DNA from: a virus
UHGV virus genome: UHGV-0039951
Length of the DNA stretch: 25,456 bases
Reading direction: 5' to 3' (one strand)
The notes under the pieces are model-generated. The model did no database searches, had not been told where the DNA came from, and worked only from the letters and a program-made list of their open reading frames with translations. The position numbers were made by a program, and so were the translations under genes. This document shows positions 213 through 8,175 of the stretch, one piece after another (the first letter of the stretch is position 1; each line of letters opens with the position of its first letter).

Positions 213-3158
213 TTAGTGCTTCCCTTCTATTAAGTCTAACCTAGCTTTTATTCTTTCTATTTCTCTGCGCTGCCATGCCGCCTCGATATAGAATAAGAGA
301 TCAGGTCTGACCCCCCATCTAGATCCTGCTGGCGTTATTTCAACGCGCTCAATGATGTCTTCCATTACCATCACTGGATTATCATCCTCATCAACAATGA
401 TGCTCCCGTCATTATCAGTCAGCGGCATTTCCCTTTGGCCAGTAATGACGTCATCATATACTGCGGGATAATCGTCATAGCAAAGAAAGGCATAGCGGCA
501 TGTTGTGCTTTCTTCTTCCATGAGTCCGTGAGAAATAAGAACATCACGAAGTTGCTGCGCGATTACACCATGATGTATCCTCGCCCCTTCTTCCCCCTTT
601 ATAGCGACAGCGTTCAGCCATTTATAAGCGATATACCTGACGTCACCCCAGGCATCCAGCAATGTTTCGTCAGGAGAGACCGGCTCTGTCTTTAATGTTC
701 CGTCACTGGTAACCACAGGATTGGAGCCAAGATAAACTATCGAGAACCTGTTTCCCGGACCACCAAGAGCATTTACATTATCAAGATAAGGTTTAACATC
801 TCCGTTCTCAAAAAGATGTTCGAGTGCGTTATATACCGCGCGACGTGGAGTACTGCTTCCGGAACCATGCAACGTTATCATTGCACCATCTGCTGAAGAC
901 GTTGTTTCACCGCCGCTAACGATTAATCTCTGAGCGGTAACATCATCAGACGGTACTTTCTTCGCAATAATGGCGTAATTACCCTCAAGTTTGACTTCCG
1001 CGCGAACTTGTCCTGATGTACCTGCATGGACAGTCAGTGACTGGACGGCAACATCATCTGTGAAATCAACGGGTACAGGAACCGTCCTCACGCCTGACGT
1101 CGACATAAAAGTAGGAAGCGTTCTGTTAGGAGTGGCTCCGTAGACAAAATCCCTTGAAACAAATTCTTCCTGTTTAATTTTCACCCTGAAACAATACAAA
1201 TCAGCCGGGTGACCATCGTGAACATAAGGATATTTTCTGTTGTTATCCCCTATGCTCCATGGGTTTAGAAAGTCTTCCCCACCGAAAATGTAGTACAGCC
1301 AGTTGTCTTTGATACAAACTGAACCAACACCAACCGCAGAGTTAACTATTCCGCCCTGATAAATCTGATCAGTAACATTAACCCACTCTACATTATCCAG
1401 ACTCCACTCATTGACGTTAACTCTGGTCATAAATGTTCTTGGATAGTTTCCTGCATAACGGTTATCAGGTTCTCCTCCTTCCCACTCACCAAATGCGCGC
1501 TCACTGCCAAAAATAATCAGCTCATCGCCAACTTTGGCAAAAGGAAGGTTTGAGTGATGAACATTATTTGGGAAGCGAAGAGAATTCCATGATGTACCTA
1601 AATCAGAGCTTCTGTGCAATGAACTACCGGGTTGAGTACTTAATGTCCCCCTGGTCGTCAGATACAGAATGCCATCATAATATTTTACACATGGCTCAGA
1701 TGCATTCGCCTCATATTCTGCAGGTATGCGTCTGCGAACAAAGCTACCAGGAGAACCGAAAGCATCAGAGAAATAGAGTATCCCAAGCTCGCGTGGACCA
1801 ATATCACCATTATGGTAGCCAACAGCAAAACTGTTATCGCTAATCGTCGCAAAACTGTGAATCTCAGTAACAGGAGTGCTTCCGTCAACAAAAGAAGGAA
1901 TAGTTCCAAGACTGGTTTTTCTCCATGGTGACGAGTGAAATGATGTACCAAAACTCCAGTATCTACCCTCGTTATTCTGATCCACATCCTGGGTATTTTG
2001 CGTCGTAACTGTAAAAGTATTTTTATCAATAACAGTAGTCACCGTCATATTCCCGGTAACACCTGTAACACCAGAGTTTGAGAAGTTGACAAAATCACCA
2101 GCAAATAATCCGTGATCAGTAATGCGAATATAAGCGACTTGCTGATTTGCTGCTTTCGTTATACCACCATAAACGCGAAGGCTGCGACTCATTGGGCGAT
2201 CCCACAACTCTGCAACCTGCAGTTTATTTCCGCTCACGGTCCGCGTCTCAATTACAGCAAAAAGGCGATTTCTGACAACCCCCATACTCATGCAGTGATA
2301 GTTAACTGTGGGATAGTTTTCATGTAAATCTGTAAGCCATTCCGGCGTTGTCCAGGTCTTCCCGTCATCTCCTGAGCGAACCCATGCAACATGGAGGTTA
2401 TTTACACCATGGCGGTCTCCAGCCATAAAAGGCGCATAGATGACATTGTCATATACAAACGTTTTATCCTGCGTCCAGGCGTTGTACCACGGTGTATCTG
2501 TAATTTTAAATAACTCTCCCTGGATAAAATCTTCAGAAACATAAAAAAGAGGCTGACCCGGTATTCTCTCAAATAAAAAACGAGCATTTTTAAATCGACT
2601 GACATCTGGAAGAGTTGATACTTTAAAAGTAAGCCCTCGCCCATCTATCTTTTCACCACCTGTTGCAACAGAAAGTAATTCTGATAGAGCTGATGTATCA
2701 TCATGAACACCATCACCAATAGCCCCCCAACCTCTTACATCATAACTGTCTCTCCATCTTGCTATCTGAAGTTTTGGGTATTTATTCGCTCCATCTGGGT
2801 CTTCTAATTGCTGCCGTAACTGATCAGGATCATACTTCAGCACATTCGGAAAATAGAACTGCTGTGTACCATACGCATCATAAACAGCCATAGAATGGCC
2901 TTGCACGGTTACGAATTTGGCAATCTGTCCGTTATATACCGGATATCCAGCAGCGTTAATGATGATTGGTTGAGAAACAGGAACGTGAGATCCATCTTCG
3001 TTCTCTACATAAACCTGAATCTGGTTTTCAGGATTTACCGGGTCAGTGTCAATTTTTCCGATATAAATTTTGCCATTGGCTACGGCTTTAAAAGAACGCG
3101 CCATAGTGAAGAGTTGCGAAGGCATACTCACTACAACATTGGCTGTAATGTCTGTCAT
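213..3158 (-). CDS. Tailspike protein: P22 gp9-type head-binding N-terminal domain, sialidase-like (Asp-box) receptor-degrading domain, likely endosialidase; C-terminal intramolecular chaperone (peptidase S74-type) domain
   Basis: 981 aa. The N-terminal ~110 aa ([56 protein letters not shown]...) match the P22 tailspike head-binding domain as I recall it. Two Asp-box motifs ([16 protein letters not shown]) and xRIP motifs (FERIP, RRRIP). The C-terminal ~160 aa begin at S818 in the motif SDGTLK, the pattern of self-cleaving chaperone domains of endosialidases and T5 L-shaped tail fibre. Confidence 0.85.
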
Positions 3159-3290
3159 TTAATTTGCTCCAGATACAAGGAATGGCCGCAGCATGGCTAC
3201 GGTTGGCATTTGTTACATACCGAAACGGTACGATTGTTGATTTGTACAGTGGGTTTTACGATGCCATTCCACCCATTTGGTGAGGCATTG

Positions 3291-3548
3291 ATGATGTACA
3301 GCAAATACGATGAGGCGCAGTTCCACTTGAGGCTTACACACGAGTTGCACGCTAAGATTAAGCAGCGTGCAAAAATGAATAACAGGTCTATCAATTCCGA
3401 AATTGTGGCTACGATGGAAGAATCACTCTCCAAACCATCACCTGTAAGCGGGTATCGTGATGAAGAAGAGAGGCTGGCCTCATTAATCTCGGAACGAGTA
3501 AAAGAAGTTGCGGCTGAAATTCTAAGGAAAGAAAAAACCCGCGATTAA
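3291..3548 (+). CDS. mnt: Mnt-like ribbon-helix-helix (Arc/MetJ superfamily) repressor, 85 aa
   Basis: Only the C-terminal part of ORF 2895..3548 is plausible. ATG at 3291 is preceded by GGTGAGG (3278-3284). The protein (FHLRLTHELHAKIKQRAKMNNRSINSEIVATMEESLSKPSPVSGYRDEEERLA...) closely parallels P22 Mnt (NGRSMNSELLQIVQDALSKPSPVTGYRNDAERLA) as recalled. Confidence 0.7.
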   Translation: MMYSKYDEAQFHLRLTHELHAKIKQRAKMNNRSINSEIVATMEESLSKPSPVSGYRDEEERLASLISERVKEVAAEILRKEKTRD

Positions 3549-3563
3549 GCGGGTTTAGTTTTC
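3532..3563. terminator. Bidirectional intrinsic terminator between the convergent mnt-like gene and the antirepressor gene
   Basis: Stem AAACCCGC / GCGGGTTT with loop GATTAA, flanked by an A-run on the 5' side and T-rich sequence on the 3' side, so it works in both orientations. The mnt-like stop codon lies in the loop. Confidence 0.6.
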
Positions 3564-3574
3564 ATTATAAAATG

Positions 3575-4303
3575 TTACGCCACATTTGAGCCATGTAGCA
3601 GGTGTTGTAGTGCTTTAACGCCTTCAGAATTGTAACGGAACGCCTCTACCTGTTTGCTGGAATGCGCCGATTTATCTAGGAAGAACTTCCCGTACTGCTC
3701 AGTTTTGAGGTTGTTTGCGTTAGCAATGCGACCAATCTTGTTGGCCGTTACTCCAAGCTGCTCTGCAACCTCCCCTGCTGAGTAGTAATGCTCTTCTATT
3801 GCCGGAAGAGGTATTGCATTAAAACCAACGAGCGGGTTGATTATACTTGCTGCCGCTGTCTGCTTTGCCTCAGGCGCAAGATTTGGCATCAGATCGAACA
3901 GATTGGTAACAGCTTCAACCGTCATTTTCAATGTTCTCGCTTGACGATACTCAACAAGTCCACTCGCTGATTTACCGCTTTTAATGTGCGCTTCTTGCAT
4001 ACTTTCAAGTTGGTCTACCAGTGAGCGGCGAACGGCTTTTGACTCGCGAGCGGCAACTCGCAATGCTTGCTTGATTGACATCTCAATGATAACCATCGAA
4101 GTTTTGTTCGCTTTTTGCACTACACTTTTTGTGTAGTGCTCTCCATCCAATTCATCTTCAATTTTCTCGATGAATTTGTTATTACGAACCTCCGGCTCAC
4201 CGCACTGTCTACGAGCCTGATTTACCATCTCAAGCAGGCGCTGGCTGTCAATGGTTTTATCCGTGACAACGGATCCGATGTTTGCTACATTCTTAAAAGT
4301 CAT
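3575..4303 (-). CDS. Antirepressor-like protein (AntA-like N-terminus, KilAC-like C-terminal motif), 243 aa
   Basis: ORF 3575..4354 trimmed to the ATG at 4303 (MTFKNVANIG...), which is preceded by AAGGAA at 7-nt spacing. The C-terminal motif YYSAGEVAEQLGVTANKIGRIANANNLKTEQYGKFF resembles KilAC domains. Family assignment from recalled motifs only. Confidence 0.5.
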   Translation of the reverse strand: MTFKNVANIGSVVTDKTIDSQRLLEMVNQARRQCGEPEVRNNKFIEKIEDELDGEHYTKSVVQKANKTSMVIIEMSIKQALRVAARESKAVRRSLVDQLESMQEAHIKSGKSASGLVEYRQARTLKMTVEAVTNLFDLMPNLAPEAKQTAAASIINPLVGFNAIPLPAIEEHYYSAGEVAEQLGVTANKIGRIANANNLKTEQYGKFFLDKSAHSSKQVEAFRYNSEGVKALQHLLHGSNVA

Positions 4304-4371
4304 TAGGCATTCCTTATGTGGTAGTAAGGGTGTGACATAGGCCGCCAGCAGCACACTGGCGGTTTTCTTTT
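4298..4371 (+). ncRNA. Putative Sar-like antisense RNA covering the RBS and start codon of the downstream antirepressor gene
   Basis: Candidate promoter GTGACA (4263-4268), 17-nt spacer, TACATT (4286-4291), then about 74 nt to the plus-strand terminator. The transcript would be complementary to the ATG at 4303 and SD at 4311-4316. Analogy to P22 sar RNA; inference only. Confidence 0.25.
4342..4371 (+). terminator. Plus-strand intrinsic terminator antisense to the antirepressor operon
   Basis: Perfect 7-bp stem CCGCCAG / CTGGCGG with 7-nt loop, followed by TTTTCTTTTT on the plus strand. On the minus strand the hairpin is followed by no U-tract, so it is orientation-specific. Confidence 0.55.
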
Positions 4372-4391
4372 TGCGCCGTCCGGCGCACCAA

Positions 4392-5030
4392 TCAATGAAT
4401 CCATTCCTCGCCGCGCAGTTTTGCCAGCATTGGCTGAGCGTTCTTTACGACAAAATTGTTGGTATCAAGATTCTTCATTTCACGAAGAAGTGATTTCTTG
4501 GTTTCTTCTGACATGTAGCGAGTCTCATATGCAATATCGTAAATCCTTCCAGAAAGCTCAGAACCAATTTGCTTCATTCCTGGGTAGATGTGTTTGCACA
4601 TTTGTTGACTCTTCTCCATCCACAATTGTAAGTAGCAGAGATTAACCAGCTCTTCGTCAGTAAACTGTTTTGCAATCGGTGAGCATTCTGCCTGCCGATC
4701 CAAAATATCCAGCACCCAGCGGCGGAACTCTTTAGCCTTGGGCGTAGAAGCAAACATCGCCACCAAGTGAGCGCCTCGGAGCGAGTAAACTCTGACCGAT
4801 TTGTTACGTAAGCTATTGTTTATCCCGTTGACCTTCATATTGAGGGTCAATGACATTGAGTCGGAAAACTCGTCAGCATTACGGGCATAAATTTGGCTGA
4901 TGGCATCAGTTTTTTTATAGCCGAGAGCCTTAGCTAGTTCGGTGGAGGTAAACCAGATAGACCCACCCTCTGTTACAGGGTTAAAGGTGAATCCTTGGAA
5001 GTTATAATCTGATTTTGCTATAATGTTCAT
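4392..5030 (-). CDS. ant: Antirepressor with BRO-N-type N-terminal domain (Ant-like), 212 aa from ATG 5030; ORF could extend to 5114
   Basis: The motif YNFQGFTFNPVTEGGSIWFTSTELAKALGY is typical of BRO-N/antirepressor N-termini. ATG at 5030 is preceded by AAGGAA. An alternative start at 5114 also has an SD and would overlap the arc-like stop. Confidence 0.6.
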   Translation of the reverse strand: MNIIAKSDYNFQGFTFNPVTEGGSIWFTSTELAKALGYKKTDAISQIYARNADEFSDSMSLTLNMKVNGINNSLRNKSVRVYSLRGAHLVAMFASTPKAKEFRRWVLDILDRQAECSPIAKQFTDEELVNLCYLQLWMEKSQQMCKHIYPGMKQIGSELSGRIYDIAYETRYMSEETKKSLLREMKNLDTNNFVVKNAQPMLAKLRGEEWIH

Positions 5031-5103
5031 GTTAGTTTCCTTGCATACGGTTACTGACATAGAGGCCCGGTTTGTGTTCGCGCACTGCCGGGCTTCACTG
5101 TTT

Positions 5104-5277
5104 TTACTGGGCATTAGCTCTTTCCTCTCTCAGGCTTTTAGCCAGTCGCTGCACAATCGCAGAGTTGATAGAAATTCCATCCATTTCAGCAACACGTCTA
5201 ATCTCCTCCTTCATTCGCGCTGGCAAACGAAGCTGGAAACTTTGGCTTTTACGACCTGTGTAAAGCACATCTTTCAT
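5104..5277 (-). CDS. arc: Arc-like ribbon-helix-helix repressor, 57 aa
   Basis: ATG at 5277 preceded by GGGAGA. The protein MKDVLYTGRKSQSFQLRLPARMKEEIRRVAEMDGISINSAIVQRLAKSL parallels P22 Arc (QFNLRWPREVLDLVRKVAEENGRSVNSEIYQRVMESF). The ORF-track start at 5292 is a GTG inside the SD region. Confidence 0.65.
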   Translation of the reverse strand: MKDVLYTGRKSQSFQLRLPARMKEEIRRVAEMDGISINSAIVQRLAKSLREERANAQ

Positions 5278-5298
5278 AAGTAATTCTCCCACAATGAT

Positions 5299-5356
5299 AC
5301 CAACTTGGTTCTAGAACCAATTTAACACCATTTATTTTGATGTCAAGTTGGTGCTA
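5299..5356. promoter_or_regulatory. Divergent control region: Pant-like promoter on minus strand (-35 TTGACA 5346..5341, -10 TAAATT 5324..5319) with operator-like palindromes
   Basis: Perfect 16-bp palindrome TTGGTTCTAGAACCAA (5305-5320) overlapping the -10 and start site. Inverted half-sites ACCAACTTGG (5299-5308) and CAAGTTGGTG (5347-5356). The arrangement mirrors the P22 immI Pant/Omnt/Oarc layout. Confidence 0.45.
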
Positions 5357-5388
5357 TTGTTTAGCGAACATCTTTACGTTGAGGTCAT

Positions 5389-5772
5389 ATGAGCAAGTTC
5401 CCTAGTCATGAAATGGATAGGTTCAATATCAGGCTTCCGGCAGGAATGCGGGATGCTATAGCCTTAAGAGCAAAGGAAAACGGCAGATCAATGAATACAG
5501 AACTAGTGTTTATCATTGATGATGCATTGAAGTCTCCGGTGCCTGCTGAGGTTGATAACTCAAGGATTATGAAGATTTACTCAAACCTCTCCGGGAACAG
5601 GCCATCAAACAAAGAAGAGTTTGAGCGGTGGGAGAATGAGCTAGTCAAAGCAATTTTCTACTTACTAGATAGCATCAGTTCTCATTCGCAAATGTACCAA
5701 GCTCTCAGGAGCTTAAGGCAAGATGCATATAAAAATGTTTTTGGCGATGATGCTGAAGACATCCAGTTTTGA
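5389..5772 (+). CDS. Mnt/Arc-type ribbon-helix-helix regulator with ~80-aa C-terminal extension, 127 aa
   Basis: ATG at 5389 preceded by GAGG. The N-terminus ([38 protein letters not shown]) is an RHH motif of Mnt type. Divergent from the arc/ant operon. Confidence 0.7.
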
Positions 5773-5816
5773 AGACCATTTCATCTGGTATCTTGCGTAA
5801 AACTAAGGAGGTTGGT

Positions 5817-6311
5817 GTGTCTGATTCTATGAGTTACGCTGTGCTAGTTGCCGCAACTCTATTTCTGGGGATAGGGTTGCAGATTGCGTGGTTCTTTTTT
5901 TCTAGTTTTATTAAACGTAAAAGAATTGAATCAAGGATATCTGAGATTTCTATTGCTATAGGGAAAAATGCTGAAAATCCAGAGAATGAGGCCTGCGCAC
6001 TGAATTACCTTAAAGAAAAGTTTTCCCCTGAAAAATTTGAAAACAGAATTACTGATGCTCTTGGATTGGTAATATCAGTAATTCATATGCCACTAAGTTT
6101 GCTGATAACAGTGTGGTACTTCGCCATGATCGCCGGAAGAATATTTGGCTTCATGAATATAGAGCCTGTAGTTCTTTGGGTTCCAATGATACTGCAACTG
6201 TTGTTAAGCGTTGCTATCTTTATTTTTTCTGTTTTTATAAAAATTGTCTTTGGAAGATACCCCGGAGAAGCGAAGGGATTTAATAAAGAATTCATAAAAA
6301 CTATAAAATAA
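5817..6311 (+). CDS. Small integral membrane protein (3 predicted TM helices); candidate superinfection-exclusion or lysogenic-conversion protein at the position sieA occupies in P22
   Basis: The ORF-track start at 5769 is TTG. A strong SD (AAGGAGG, 5804-5810) sits 6 nt before GTG 5817. Three hydrophobic segments. AT-rich composition relative to neighbours. Confidence 0.55.
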
Positions 6312-6333
6312 ATGCCGTCCTTGGCTTACAGTG

Positions 6334-8175
6334 CTACTGCCGGGTCGCTTCGTTAGCTAAGAGCGGGCGCACGGCAGTAGCCGCCTGATTTAGCGCTCTT
6401 TCATAGGCTGGTGTTCCTGCTTTGGTGTTTGCCAGACGTAAGAGCGCATTCCTTGCTGCTTTGGACTCATACAAACGCATCATTGCACCAAAACCAGCCT
6501 CAAGCCCCATTGATACGCCAAGAGTCGCGGTTGCGCCAATCGTCCTTATCCTGTTGGCTTGCGATTGCCCCGTCTGAGTTACTACATTTGCGGTGTCTGA
6601 CCTTGCTGTTTGCTGTAGAACTTCATGAAGAGCATCAAGCTCTTTCATATGCTTTCCAGAAAAAATAGTGTTGTAAATTTCACCACCTGACTGAGATTTC
6701 AGCTTATTAACTTCAGTGATGAACTTGGCTGGAGAGTCACCGGCCTTTTCCGCTATTTTGCTGACGTAAGCTGCACGCATAGCATCTTTACCATTATCAT
6801 CCAATGCGCTCCAGATTCGTTTCACGTCAGATGGTTTTCTGCTTAATACAACGGTATTTATAAGTTCAGGGCTGGCTTCACTACTTGCCTTATTGAGCTT
6901 GTTAGCAATGTTTTTATTAAGCACCTTATTATAAACGTTTGCATAATCGGAATTTGCTTTAAGGTATTTTGCTGCGTCTGATGCACCGCGGTTTTTAGCA
7001 ACTGCGTTACGAAGGTCTTTTGACATTGCATTCTCTACCATATTGGTAGCTGCTTTTGCCTGGTTGGGGAAGACCATAGCATCTCCCTGAACATTAGATC
7101 TAAATGCTGTTCTGTGCTGACGCAAGAGATCAAACGTAACCTCCAAATCAGTTGCAGGGTTTGCTAATTCTTCACGTAGGTTACGTAAGGATGTAAGCAG
7201 GCTTTGATTGGCAGACGTCCCAAGCCGTTCCTGTCTTGCGATCGCTGTATTCAGAGCATTCATGGTATTTGTGGTATCAACTGCGGCATTACCCATTTTA
7301 TTGGTGACGTCATTGATAACAGCGCCAGCGGCATCCTTCCGCCCCCTTAACGTGGTGGTCAGAGATTTCACCACATCATCAGGGTTGTACTCACCAAAAC
7401 GGTCAAAATAATTACTTACCAGCTTACTACGCGTTGCATATTGCTCCGCTCGCTTTGAGCCTGTCCCGAGCAAAGCCCCCTCGGCATCCTGAGTAAGGCC
7501 GCGAGTGAAAGCATTTTTCGGCGGGATAACATCAGATGTCATTGGTGTCACGCCCATCGATTCTGATGTGGCAATTTTATTCGCCACTTCTGGCGCAATA
7601 TCACCTTTTATAGCCGTTATTCCACGCCCTATTCCCTTTGCTGCTGCGGAAAGAACACCCTGAGCGGCAAGGTTAACTCCGGCATTTTTAGCTGCATTTT
7701 GTGCGAAATCGCCTTTCTGATTTGCGGCCTCTGCCAGTGAGCCAATAGCCATGCTTCCTGCCGTTCCAACTCCTGGAACTAAATACCCACCAATTGTTTC
7801 ACCGGCTTGCGCGTAGGGGTCTGTCGGTCTGTCTACTGGACGATAAACATCATCCAAAACCTTGGGTCCACCAAGCCCCTGACTGATTGCATTAATCAGA
7901 CTTGCGCCACCCTGCAAAACGTCAAATGGTATGTTCACCAGACCACGACCAGCCTGTTCTGCAATTTGCCCTGCACTTTGACCACCAGTGAGCCAATCGC
8001 CAGCTTGTTGCATCAATGATGGTTCTTCACGTGCTGGTTCATTATTGGCCTGATTAACTGTTTGTTGCTGAACAGCCTGACCAGCAAAATACTCATCAAT
8101 GGCGGTGCCAATATCTTCCGTGCTCGTACCATCAGGGAAGGTAAATGTCTTACCGTTTGCAGTTACTTTCATCAT
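6334..8175 (-). CDS. Ejection (injection) protein, P22 gp16-like
   Basis: 613 aa; last of three ejection-protein genes after the tail needle, in P22 order 7-20-16; size matches P22 gp16 (~609 aa). Assigned by synteny and size. Confidence 0.7.

Follow-up and report, generated by a model that had tools for sequence, protein, structure and literature searches.

A type A sieA gene beside an Mnt-like regulator gene in a P22-like Escherichia coli prophage, and a conserved leader that may mark a cargo slot

Introduction

The superinfection exclusion protein SieA of phage P22 was reportedly studied by Susskind in 1974 and by Hofer in 1995, and Hofer et al. are said to have defined, in the 1995 work, the putative promoter PsieA. 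P22 SieA is located exclusively in the inner membrane and blocks DNA injection; the infected cells show no K+ release, as is the case with particles that lack the ejection proteins (Leavitt et al. 2024, PMC10883804). The protein is effective only against P22-like phages, is active in E. coli, and is escaped only by phages in which both gp16 and gp20 are altered in their C-terminal parts (PMC10883804). The prophages of E. coli carry either type A or type B SieA, and the most conserved feature across all three SieA types is the motif FxRYPxEAxxFNK, at residues 145-157 of the P22 protein; experimental proof of both the block and the inner-membrane location is available for the P22 and HS1 proteins only (PMC10883804). 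A single copy of the P22 gene, with no more than 85 bp of the DNA before it, is enough to exclude phage (PMC10883804), and established lysogens express sieA much less strongly than newly infected cells do in the early period (Cenens et al. 2015, PMC4697819). In P22 the gene belongs to the immI region, or 'ant moron', in which the order is 9, ant, arc, mnt, (ORF59), sieA, 16 (Villafane 2008, PMC2629481).

Here we analyse a locus of this kind in a virus genome from the UHGV collection (UHGV-0039951). We refer to the whole stretch of 25,456 nucleotides as the window, and all positions are counted from its first letter. A preliminary description of the segment 5389-6311, made from the letters alone, had proposed an Mnt-like regulator co-transcribed with a small membrane protein that might act in superinfection exclusion or abortive infection. 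We consider it highly probable that the window is part of a P22-like E. coli prophage in which 5104-6311 forms the gene-16-proximal end of the 'ant moron' (immI region), a judgement that we make jointly with the SieA and Mnt-type readings developed below.

Results

Layout of the locus

Two E. coli isolates from chicken have the stretch 3500-6400 in their chromosomes at 100% identity, and the RefSeq labels there read, in order, Arc-family, hypothetical, P22AR-domain, Arc-family, Arc-family, hypothetical and DNA transfer protein. Four genes described here lie on the minus strand at the left: a long ORF homologous to the tailspike gene (213-3158), a gene matching PHROG 1726 'anti-repressor' (3575-4354), the antirepressor gene ant (4392-5114), whose product combines Bro-N and P22AR_C (PF02498 and PF10548) and matches PHROG 245 'anti-repressor Ant' at 6.5e-64, and an arc-like gene for a 57-aa ribbon-helix-helix repressor (5104-5277). 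The last protein (WP_000655894.1, named 'Arc family DNA-binding protein' by RefSeq) matches Pfam Arc at 1.1e-11 and is 42% identical to P22 Arc. Its gene is the first of a leftward arc-ant operon and overlaps ant by 11 nt; an identical arc/ant overlap is seen in a Cronobacter prophage. On the plus strand follow the mnt-like gene for the 127-aa regulator (5389-5772; Pfam Arc and PHROG 3178) and the 164-aa membrane protein gene (5817-6311; P22 SieA and PHROG 7745). The latter is convergent with a gene 16 homologue on the minus strand (6334-8175), which would encode a DNA-transfer or ejection protein (PHROG 770 'DNA transfer protein', 1.9e-278; RefSeq 'DNA transfer protein'), and P22 gene 16 is in the equivalent position. 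The gene order in the window matches the layout of the P22 immI region or 'ant moron'. The product of gene 16 belongs to the protein class that SieA targets. An Rfam scan of 3000-7000 (E<=1) gave chance-level matches only, and no sar-like RNA.

The membrane protein is SieA by sequence

The preliminary description had placed a candidate membrane-level exclusion determinant at the position of P22 sieA, which proved to be an understatement: judged by sequence, the protein of 164 aa is orthologous to SieA of type A, that is, the gene is sieA itself, and its family has already been characterised. In BLASTP, 152 of its 164 residues (93%) are identical to P22 SieA, with no gaps (E=3e-114); PHROG 7745 'superinfection exclusion SieA-like' is aligned over positions 1-164 of 164 (E=7.1e-109), and the FxRYPxEAxxFNK motif is present at the C-terminal residues 145-157. 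The DNA differs from that of P22 at 22 of 492 positions (about 95% nucleotide identity), and megablast retrieved the segment at 94-95% identity from P22 and some 40 other Salmonella P22-like phages, several of which have the gene annotated as 'superinfection exclusion protein'. The position is also that of P22, between the homologues of genes 16 and 9, with mnt/arc/ant and the tailspike gene on the other side.

A different and novel exclusion or abortive-infection effector, merely sitting at the sieA position, might be suspected from the RefSeq name 'hypothetical protein', from the Pfam and PADLOC searches, in which no model matched SieA, and from the unrelated ORFs that do occupy this position in other phages. 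This reading is refuted by the full-length identity of 93% to P22 SieA, by the motif and by the full-length PHROG 7745 match, and we give it practically no credence. The suggestion of abortive infection is unsupported as well, P22 SieA being a protein that blocks DNA entry (PMC10883804). In most of the E. coli genomes among the matches listed, RefSeq gives this SieA the name 'hypothetical protein', and the identification of sieA could be used to correct the annotation.

The frame 5817-6311 comprises 165 codons including the stop, and hence the membrane protein has 164 aa, one fewer than originally stated. The mnt-like gene ends with TGA at 5770-5772 and sieA begins with GTG at 5817-5819; the start had been rightly placed 45 nt after the regulator stop, the intervening gap being 44 nt. 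The Shine-Dalgarno sequence, earlier called near-consensus, is in fact a perfect 9-nt complement to the 3' end of 16S rRNA, TAAGGAGGT, at 5804-5812, and ends 4 nt before the GTG. An ORF from a TTG, 5769-6311 (180 aa), is only the longest frame that can be drawn mechanically, and was set aside. Three hydrophobic segments are predicted by the Kyte-Doolittle scale (residues ~7-30, 81-111 and 114-148, with 19-residue peaks at 9-27, 81-99 and 128-146), with no signal peptide, which accords with the three-helix membrane protein first described and with the three TMHMM helices published for P22 SieA (PMC10883804). The coding sequence has 35.8% GC (32.7% GC3) against a window mean of 47.0% and is the lowest-GC stretch of 495 nt in the whole window, so that the earlier remark on its AT-richness was correct. 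It had also been said that an ORF without coding potential or conservation would speak against an exclusion gene; the sieA ORF is conserved, being present in 44 records of phages and in 35 E. coli genomes that are complete, and its dN/dS of 0.33 relative to P22 sieA indicates purifying selection.

Helix 1 is followed by the sequence KRKR, and the protein has a basic C-terminal tail. By the positive-inside rule, these features suggest that SieA would insert in the inner membrane with its short N-terminal end and the loop that joins helix 2 to helix 3 in the periplasm, and with the loop of residues 30-80 and the C-terminal motif in the cytoplasm; such a location of the motif agrees with the published prediction. 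The protein of the window differs in 12 residues from the tested P22 protein, and the 93% identity between the two argues for the same function. The prophage SieA would then keep the DNA of superinfecting P22-like phages from crossing the inner membrane, and would most likely do so by interfering with the gp20/gp16 ejection-protein conduit.

The sieA cassette and its boundaries

Homology to P22 starts 31 nt before the GTG, at the left edge of a conserved 34-nt leader, TGGTATCTTGCGTAAAACTAAGGAGGTTGGTGTG (5786-5819, plus strand), which ends in the sieA GTG and forms the left boundary of the sieA cassette. From there the identity to P22 is about 95% over ~5786-6390 (93-98% from 5810 to ~6350). 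The right end of this block was placed by sliding identity within 6312-6390, which consists of the 22-nt spacer and the last ~55 nt of gene 16; beyond it, the identity falls via 83% and 75% to 53-80% in the gene 16 stretch compared, and genes 16 and 20 overall are 76% identical to those of P22. Such sharp boundaries indicate that a cassette of ~600 bp, from the leader to the 3' end of gene 16, has been exchanged between Salmonella- and E. coli-type phages. The horizontal acquisition that had been proposed on the ground of base composition is therefore supported by mosaic boundaries, and not by composition alone. The joints of this exchange with Salmonella P22-type phages would have been the leader, at the left, and the 3' end of gene 16, at the right. 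The type A sieA block occurs in 35 of 5426 complete E. coli genomes, and the exact junction of mnt-like gene and sieA in 2 of the 5426.

The 127-aa regulator and the divergent control region

An Mnt-type ribbon-helix-helix (RHH) N-terminus had been recognised in the 127-aa protein, and the searches agree: Pfam Arc (PF03869) matches residues 7-50 above the cut-off (E=1.1e-16), and the closest solved structure by sequence (phmmer) is that of P22 Mnt (1MNT, 2.3e-8). The identity to P22 Mnt reaches 50% and is confined to residues 12-53; hhalign aligns the two proteins over residues 11-53 with a probability of 98.7%, and we place the RHH domain at residues ~7-53. The BLASTP, phmmer and hhalign alignments all end at residue 53, and none of them detected homology to the C-terminal tetramerisation domain of P22 Mnt (residues ~52-82). 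A phmmer search with the C-terminal 76 residues against PDB sequences gave noise only, and Foldseek with the AlphaFold2 model of the regulator retrieved the RHH part only (AmrZ, Arc), with nothing at E<=0.001. In this model, for which an alignment of 18 sequences was the input, helices are predicted at residues 59-69 and 75-121, with pLDDT values of 84-94 over residues 61-120.

The C-terminal extension had been described as some 80 extra residues and as unusual. The extra residues are present (~74), but they are not unusual, since they belong to the standard architecture of PHROG 3178, which is widespread in Enterobacterales. The 125 positions of PHROG 3178 are aligned, from 1 to 121, with residues 1-121 of the regulator (E=2.6e-59); an 84% identical full-length homologue is found in Salmonella phage Oslo, and full-length homologues of 50-66% identity are found in Yersinia, Cronobacter, Enterobacter, Serratia and Rahnella. 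By these matches the regulator is a member of a widespread family of ~125-aa proteins, PHROG 3178.

The region between the arc-like and mnt-like genes (5293-5363) has the features of a divergent control region. It contains a consensus-like leftward promoter site on the minus strand (-35 TTGACA at 5346-5341, extended -10 at 5324-5319), a perfect 16-bp palindrome, TTGGTTCTAGAACCAA (5305-5320), which abuts the leftward -10, further ACCAA/TTGGT half-sites (5299-5308, 5326-5331 and 5344-5354) and a rightward extended -10-like sequence, TGCTATTGT (5352-5360, plus strand). The palindrome TTGGTTCTAGAACCAA is the sole match in the window even with three mismatches, and 13 of 100 shuffles also gave one such match. 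The operator Omnt of P22 occupies the equivalent place relative to Pant. The siphovirus Oslo carries a nearly identical core 5293-5363, the core is conserved in Cronobacter and Yersinia prophages, and in Cronobacter the two arms of the palindrome change symmetrically, from TTGGTTC..GAACCAA to TTGGTAC..GTACCAA. The whole triad, with ant and arc leftward and the mnt-like gene divergent from them, is kept in four genera (the examples include Salmonella phage Oslo and prophages of Cronobacter and Yersinia), in P22-like and in siphovirus prophages, and is retained even where the module is embedded in a cluster of siphovirus tail genes.

The conserved triad and the control region, with a palindrome placed as the P22 Mnt operator is, argue for an Mnt function. 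The 127-aa protein is most likely the Mnt-type maintenance repressor of this immI variant, serving to repress the antirepressor in the lysogen. Its RHH domain would bind the palindrome that overlaps the -10 and start of the leftward arc-ant promoter and would so keep the antirepressor off. By analogy, we infer that the long helical C-terminal domain may supply the dimer-of-dimers contact, as an unrelated short coiled coil does in P22 Mnt. We also weighed whether the RHH protein is an antitoxin or a ParG-like partition adaptor instead of an Mnt analogue, a reading suggested by weak, sub-threshold Pfam matches (FitA-like, RHH_5 and HicB) and by PHROGs 795 and 2685 'partition protein ATPase', which also match. 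However, neither a toxin gene nor a ParA gene is adjacent, the regulator is always divergent from arc-ant in the P22-like and siphovirus prophages compared, and its best relative among solved structures is P22 Mnt; an antitoxin or partition role is thus very improbable.

Transcription of sieA

The leader contains an extended -10-like element, TGGTATCTT (5786-5794, plus strand), which reads TGGTATCYT across loci. No -35 was recognisable upstream of this element, and the promoter scan did not call it. Of the 85 bp that are sufficient for the expression of P22 sieA, 34 are conserved in the window. A terminator scan of 5000-6500 found none in this range and none between the mnt-like gene and sieA, and the P22 spacer with ORF59 and a terminator-like sequence (a hairpin plus T-run) is absent from the window. 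A hairpin after sieA (6333-6381) was not better than shuffles (z=-1.07). Given the 44-nt gap and the absence of a terminator-like site, read-through from the mnt-like promoter is plausible, and the co-transcription of the two genes that had been proposed is possible, and is not required for sieA expression.

In a stricter version of the operon, sieA would be the second gene of an mnt-like/sieA unit and would have no other source of expression, with exclusion coupled to Mnt autoregulation. The short gap free of terminator-like sites, the loss of the P22 ORF59 spacer and the -10-like element without a recognisable -35 are all in keeping with it. Against it, the identical leader is found behind 12 unrelated upstream sequences, mostly with no abutting gene in the same orientation; the mnt-like gene abuts the leader in only 3 of 124 loci among the matches listed; and 85 bp of upstream DNA are enough for a single copy of P22 sieA to be effective (PMC10883804). 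We regard an obligate operon as unlikely. The preferred reading is that sieA would be transcribed probably from a weak extended -10 promoter inside the 34-nt leader and translated from the GTG at 5817 behind the perfect Shine-Dalgarno sequence, and that read-through from the mnt-like promoter may add to its transcription. From the comparison of loci, we conclude that the leader probably acts as the slot's own expression signal and as a recombination joint, mnt read-through being at most an addition in the window.

A possible leader-defined slot by gene 16

E. coli MDR_56 has this mnt-like gene and this leader too, but the ORF behind them is a wholly different one, of 109 aa. An exact-pattern scan of IMG/VR, with a search pattern of 31 fixed bases, found the leader in at least 120 contigs, and all leader contigs among the matches listed have a P22-like context, with immI/tailspike on one side of the leader and gene 16 on the other. 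The ORFs that start at the shared GTG, with sizes of 62-164 aa, belong to at least 12 unrelated families, and their sequences diverge directly after the GTG. SieA accounts for 13 of 121 loci among the matches listed. The other cargos include PHROGs 5962, 2651, 8100, 21338, 7294, 10450 and 19844, all of 'unknown function'; eight of the cargo families fall in different PHROGs, three in none, and one is YobH-like. In most cargo ORFs the N-terminal part includes a hydrophobic segment. The DNA on the upstream side of the leader is of 12 unrelated types, which occur in free combination with the types of cargo among the matches listed, and conservation collapses at both edges of the leader. The 60-nt 3' tail of gene 16 varies with the cargo. 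When loci with 97-99% identical gp16 were compared, 58 of 76 carried the leader core AAAACTAAGGAG, the others having a diverged variant. The loci with AAAACTAAGGAG include type B SieA and a 161-aa lipoprotein, each of which uses its own ATG after the Shine-Dalgarno sequence.

Taken as a whole, these comparisons lead us to propose, tentatively and with a little less than even confidence, that the leader (consensus TGGTATCYTGCNNAAAACTAAGGAGGTTGGTGTG) may be a fixed expression and recombination adaptor that defines a single-gene cargo slot by gene 16 in P22-like phages. The conservation of the leader might instead reflect recent common descent, or the ribosome-binding site of a divergent hkcC-like gene, and not a shared cargo module. 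Such an explanation gains from the search pattern itself, which was fixed at 31 bases, and from a minus-strand ATG that abuts the leader in 124 of 124 loci among the matches listed, opening into a 121-aa hkcC-like ORF in 39 of the 124. The remaining minus-strand ORFs are remnants of 2-32 codons (23 codons in the window), and since these are the majority, an hkcC-like gene cannot explain the conservation of the leader. Moreover, the flanks are unrelated among loci and combinatorially mixed, which points to repeated recombination at or inside the leader, and the leader variants retain the Shine-Dalgarno core even where the cargo uses its own ATG. We therefore hold descent or an hkcC-like gene to be an improbable source of the conservation.

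If the cargo slot is real, SieA would be one cargo among at least 12, and no other among them has a known function. The other cargos would form a repertoire of candidate envelope-level exclusion or lysogenic-conversion proteins, most of them with an N-terminal signal peptide or membrane anchor, and recombination within the leader and within the 3' end of gene 16 would replace one cargo by another.

Discussion

Earlier publications already describe SieA and Mnt/Arc/Ant, and also the rapid flux in the 'ant moron' (PMC10883804, PMC2629481). Our result, in which a well-studied exclusion gene and a repressor family of common occurrence are identified once more, is as such of little consequence. What may be new is confined to the proposed leader-defined cargo slot. 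In PMC2629481 and the other literature searched, the coverage of which was incomplete, we found no description of a conserved leader that delimits a slot, and its sequence appeared only inside a deletion primer. The term 'ant moron' occurred in a single paper of the literature searched (PMC2629481), which makes no mention of a conserved boundary sequence.

The comparison of loci also bears on the start codon of SieA, which was left open by Leavitt et al. 2024 (PMC10883804). Since unrelated cargos share the same GTG, the comparative evidence settles the start in favour of that codon and of a protein of 164 aa. The leader would further provide a sequence handle for collecting all cargos of the sieA slot, a compact set of proteins, candidates for an anti-phage or envelope-modifying role, to which the existing SieA assays can be applied.

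The closest known system for the membrane protein is P22 SieA itself. The two proteins share the length of 164 aa, the three transmembrane segments and the motif, and the two genes share the GTG start, the Shine-Dalgarno sequence, the place convergent with gene 16 and the low GC content. They differ by the 12 substitutions in the window protein and by the host, E. coli and not Salmonella. The surroundings differ more: in the window the 127-aa mnt-like gene lies 44 nt upstream of sieA, whereas P22 has ~410 nt with hkcC/ORF59, and only the proximal 34 nt of the DNA upstream of P22 sieA are kept. More distant parallels are HK97 gp15, T4 Imm and the lactococcal Sie2009, small inner-membrane proteins, encoded by prophages or phages, that halt the entry of related phage genomes after adsorption. 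These proteins act on tape measure or PtsG pathways, whereas SieA acts on the podovirus ejection proteins gp16 and gp20, and we know of no sequence relationship between SieA and any of them.

The regulator resembles P22 Mnt (1MNT) in its RHH domain, which is 50% identical, in its orientation divergent from arc-ant and in the symmetric, operator-like palindrome at the start of the leftward promoter. In contrast to P22 Mnt, it has 127 aa and not 83, and its C-terminal part is predicted to consist of two helices, one of them of ~47 residues, in which no homology to the coiled coil was detected. At the first base-contacting position of the beta-strand the regulator has Arg, where Mnt has His6, and the sequence of the putative operator differs too. 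Finally, the locus as a whole resembles the 'ant moron' of P22-like phages (PMC2629481) in its place between gene 16 and the tailspike gene, in being an independently expressed module of highly variable gene content, and in its mnt/arc/ant and sieA-like genes; compared with the published 'ant moron', the window has in addition a second antirepressor-like gene and a third Arc-family gene.

Small ORFs behind the conserved leader

At least 120 viral contigs of the P22-like type carry the 34-nt leader whose last three bases are the sieA GTG (5786-5819 in the window), and the small ORFs that follow it, 62-164 aa long, fall into at least 12 unrelated groups (the window and loci L003-L123). Most of these ORFs encode membrane or secreted proteins without an assigned function, and the cargo types are mixed combinatorially with the sequence types upstream of the leader (L003-L123). 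The leader region looks like a cargo slot, in which the promoter-like element, the Shine-Dalgarno sequence and the start codon are all fixed. Escherichia coli MDR_56, for example, has the identical mnt-like gene and leader, but the place of SieA is taken by a 109-aa protein (L003:5527-5856; WP_000895335.1, PHROG 5962, unknown function) that combines a coiled coil with a membrane anchor at its N-terminus. The family of this protein is the most frequent cargo in the viral-contig sample, accounting for 23 of the loci listed. As to SieA itself, RefSeq/PGAP gives this orthologue the name 'superinfection exclusion protein A' in a single record among the 12 E. coli genomes listed (H71-H82); in the other 11 it is a 'hypothetical protein'.

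At its other edge the leader is abutted in every locus by a minus-strand ATG (5783-5785 in the window and the equivalent position in L001-L123). In 39 of the loci listed this ATG opens a 121-aa hkcC-like ORF; the loci without that ORF keep only short remnants, and in the window the remnant has 23 codons and is antisense to the mnt-like gene. Since the ATG has been kept, with either the 121-aa ORF or remnants of one, the leader is a one-time intergenic region between two divergent genes.

Gene 16 and the tailspike gene

The C-terminal 12 residues of gp16 also co-vary with cargo type (window 6334-6390; loci L125-L204). The protein ends in VRPLLVNEATRQ with SieA cargo, in VRPLLTNEATRQ with cargo family 3 and in IRPLL/FATEATQQ with cargo families 1, 4 and 8. 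This pattern is compatible with a recombination boundary within the 3' end of gene 16, and may be of interest because SieA escape mutations map to the C-terminal region of gp16 (PMC10883804).

At the left end of the window, the tailspike gene (213-3158, minus strand) is an uninterrupted 981-aa ORF, whereas that of E. coli MS1657 is annotated as truncated, beside an IS66-family (ISCro1) transposase (L002:1-2659). No long plus-strand ORF lies in the window at the place corresponding to this transposase. Given both differences, the sequence left of approximately 1630 may come from a strain other than MS1657.

Control modules of the immI type

Adjoining the tailspike gene is a third Arc-family gene (3261-3548, plus strand; 95 aa, RefSeq WP_042041822.1), and a second antirepressor-like gene lies at 3575-4354 (minus strand; PHROG 1726). 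Their presence suggests that the immI-type control module in the window is duplicated or composite. The arrangement ant <- arc <-|-> mnt-like, together with the conserved control region, was also found within siphovirus-type tail gene clusters of phages and prophages, namely Salmonella phage Oslo (L124), Cronobacter (L205/L206) and Yersinia (L207/L208), and is therefore a portable module common to different virion types.
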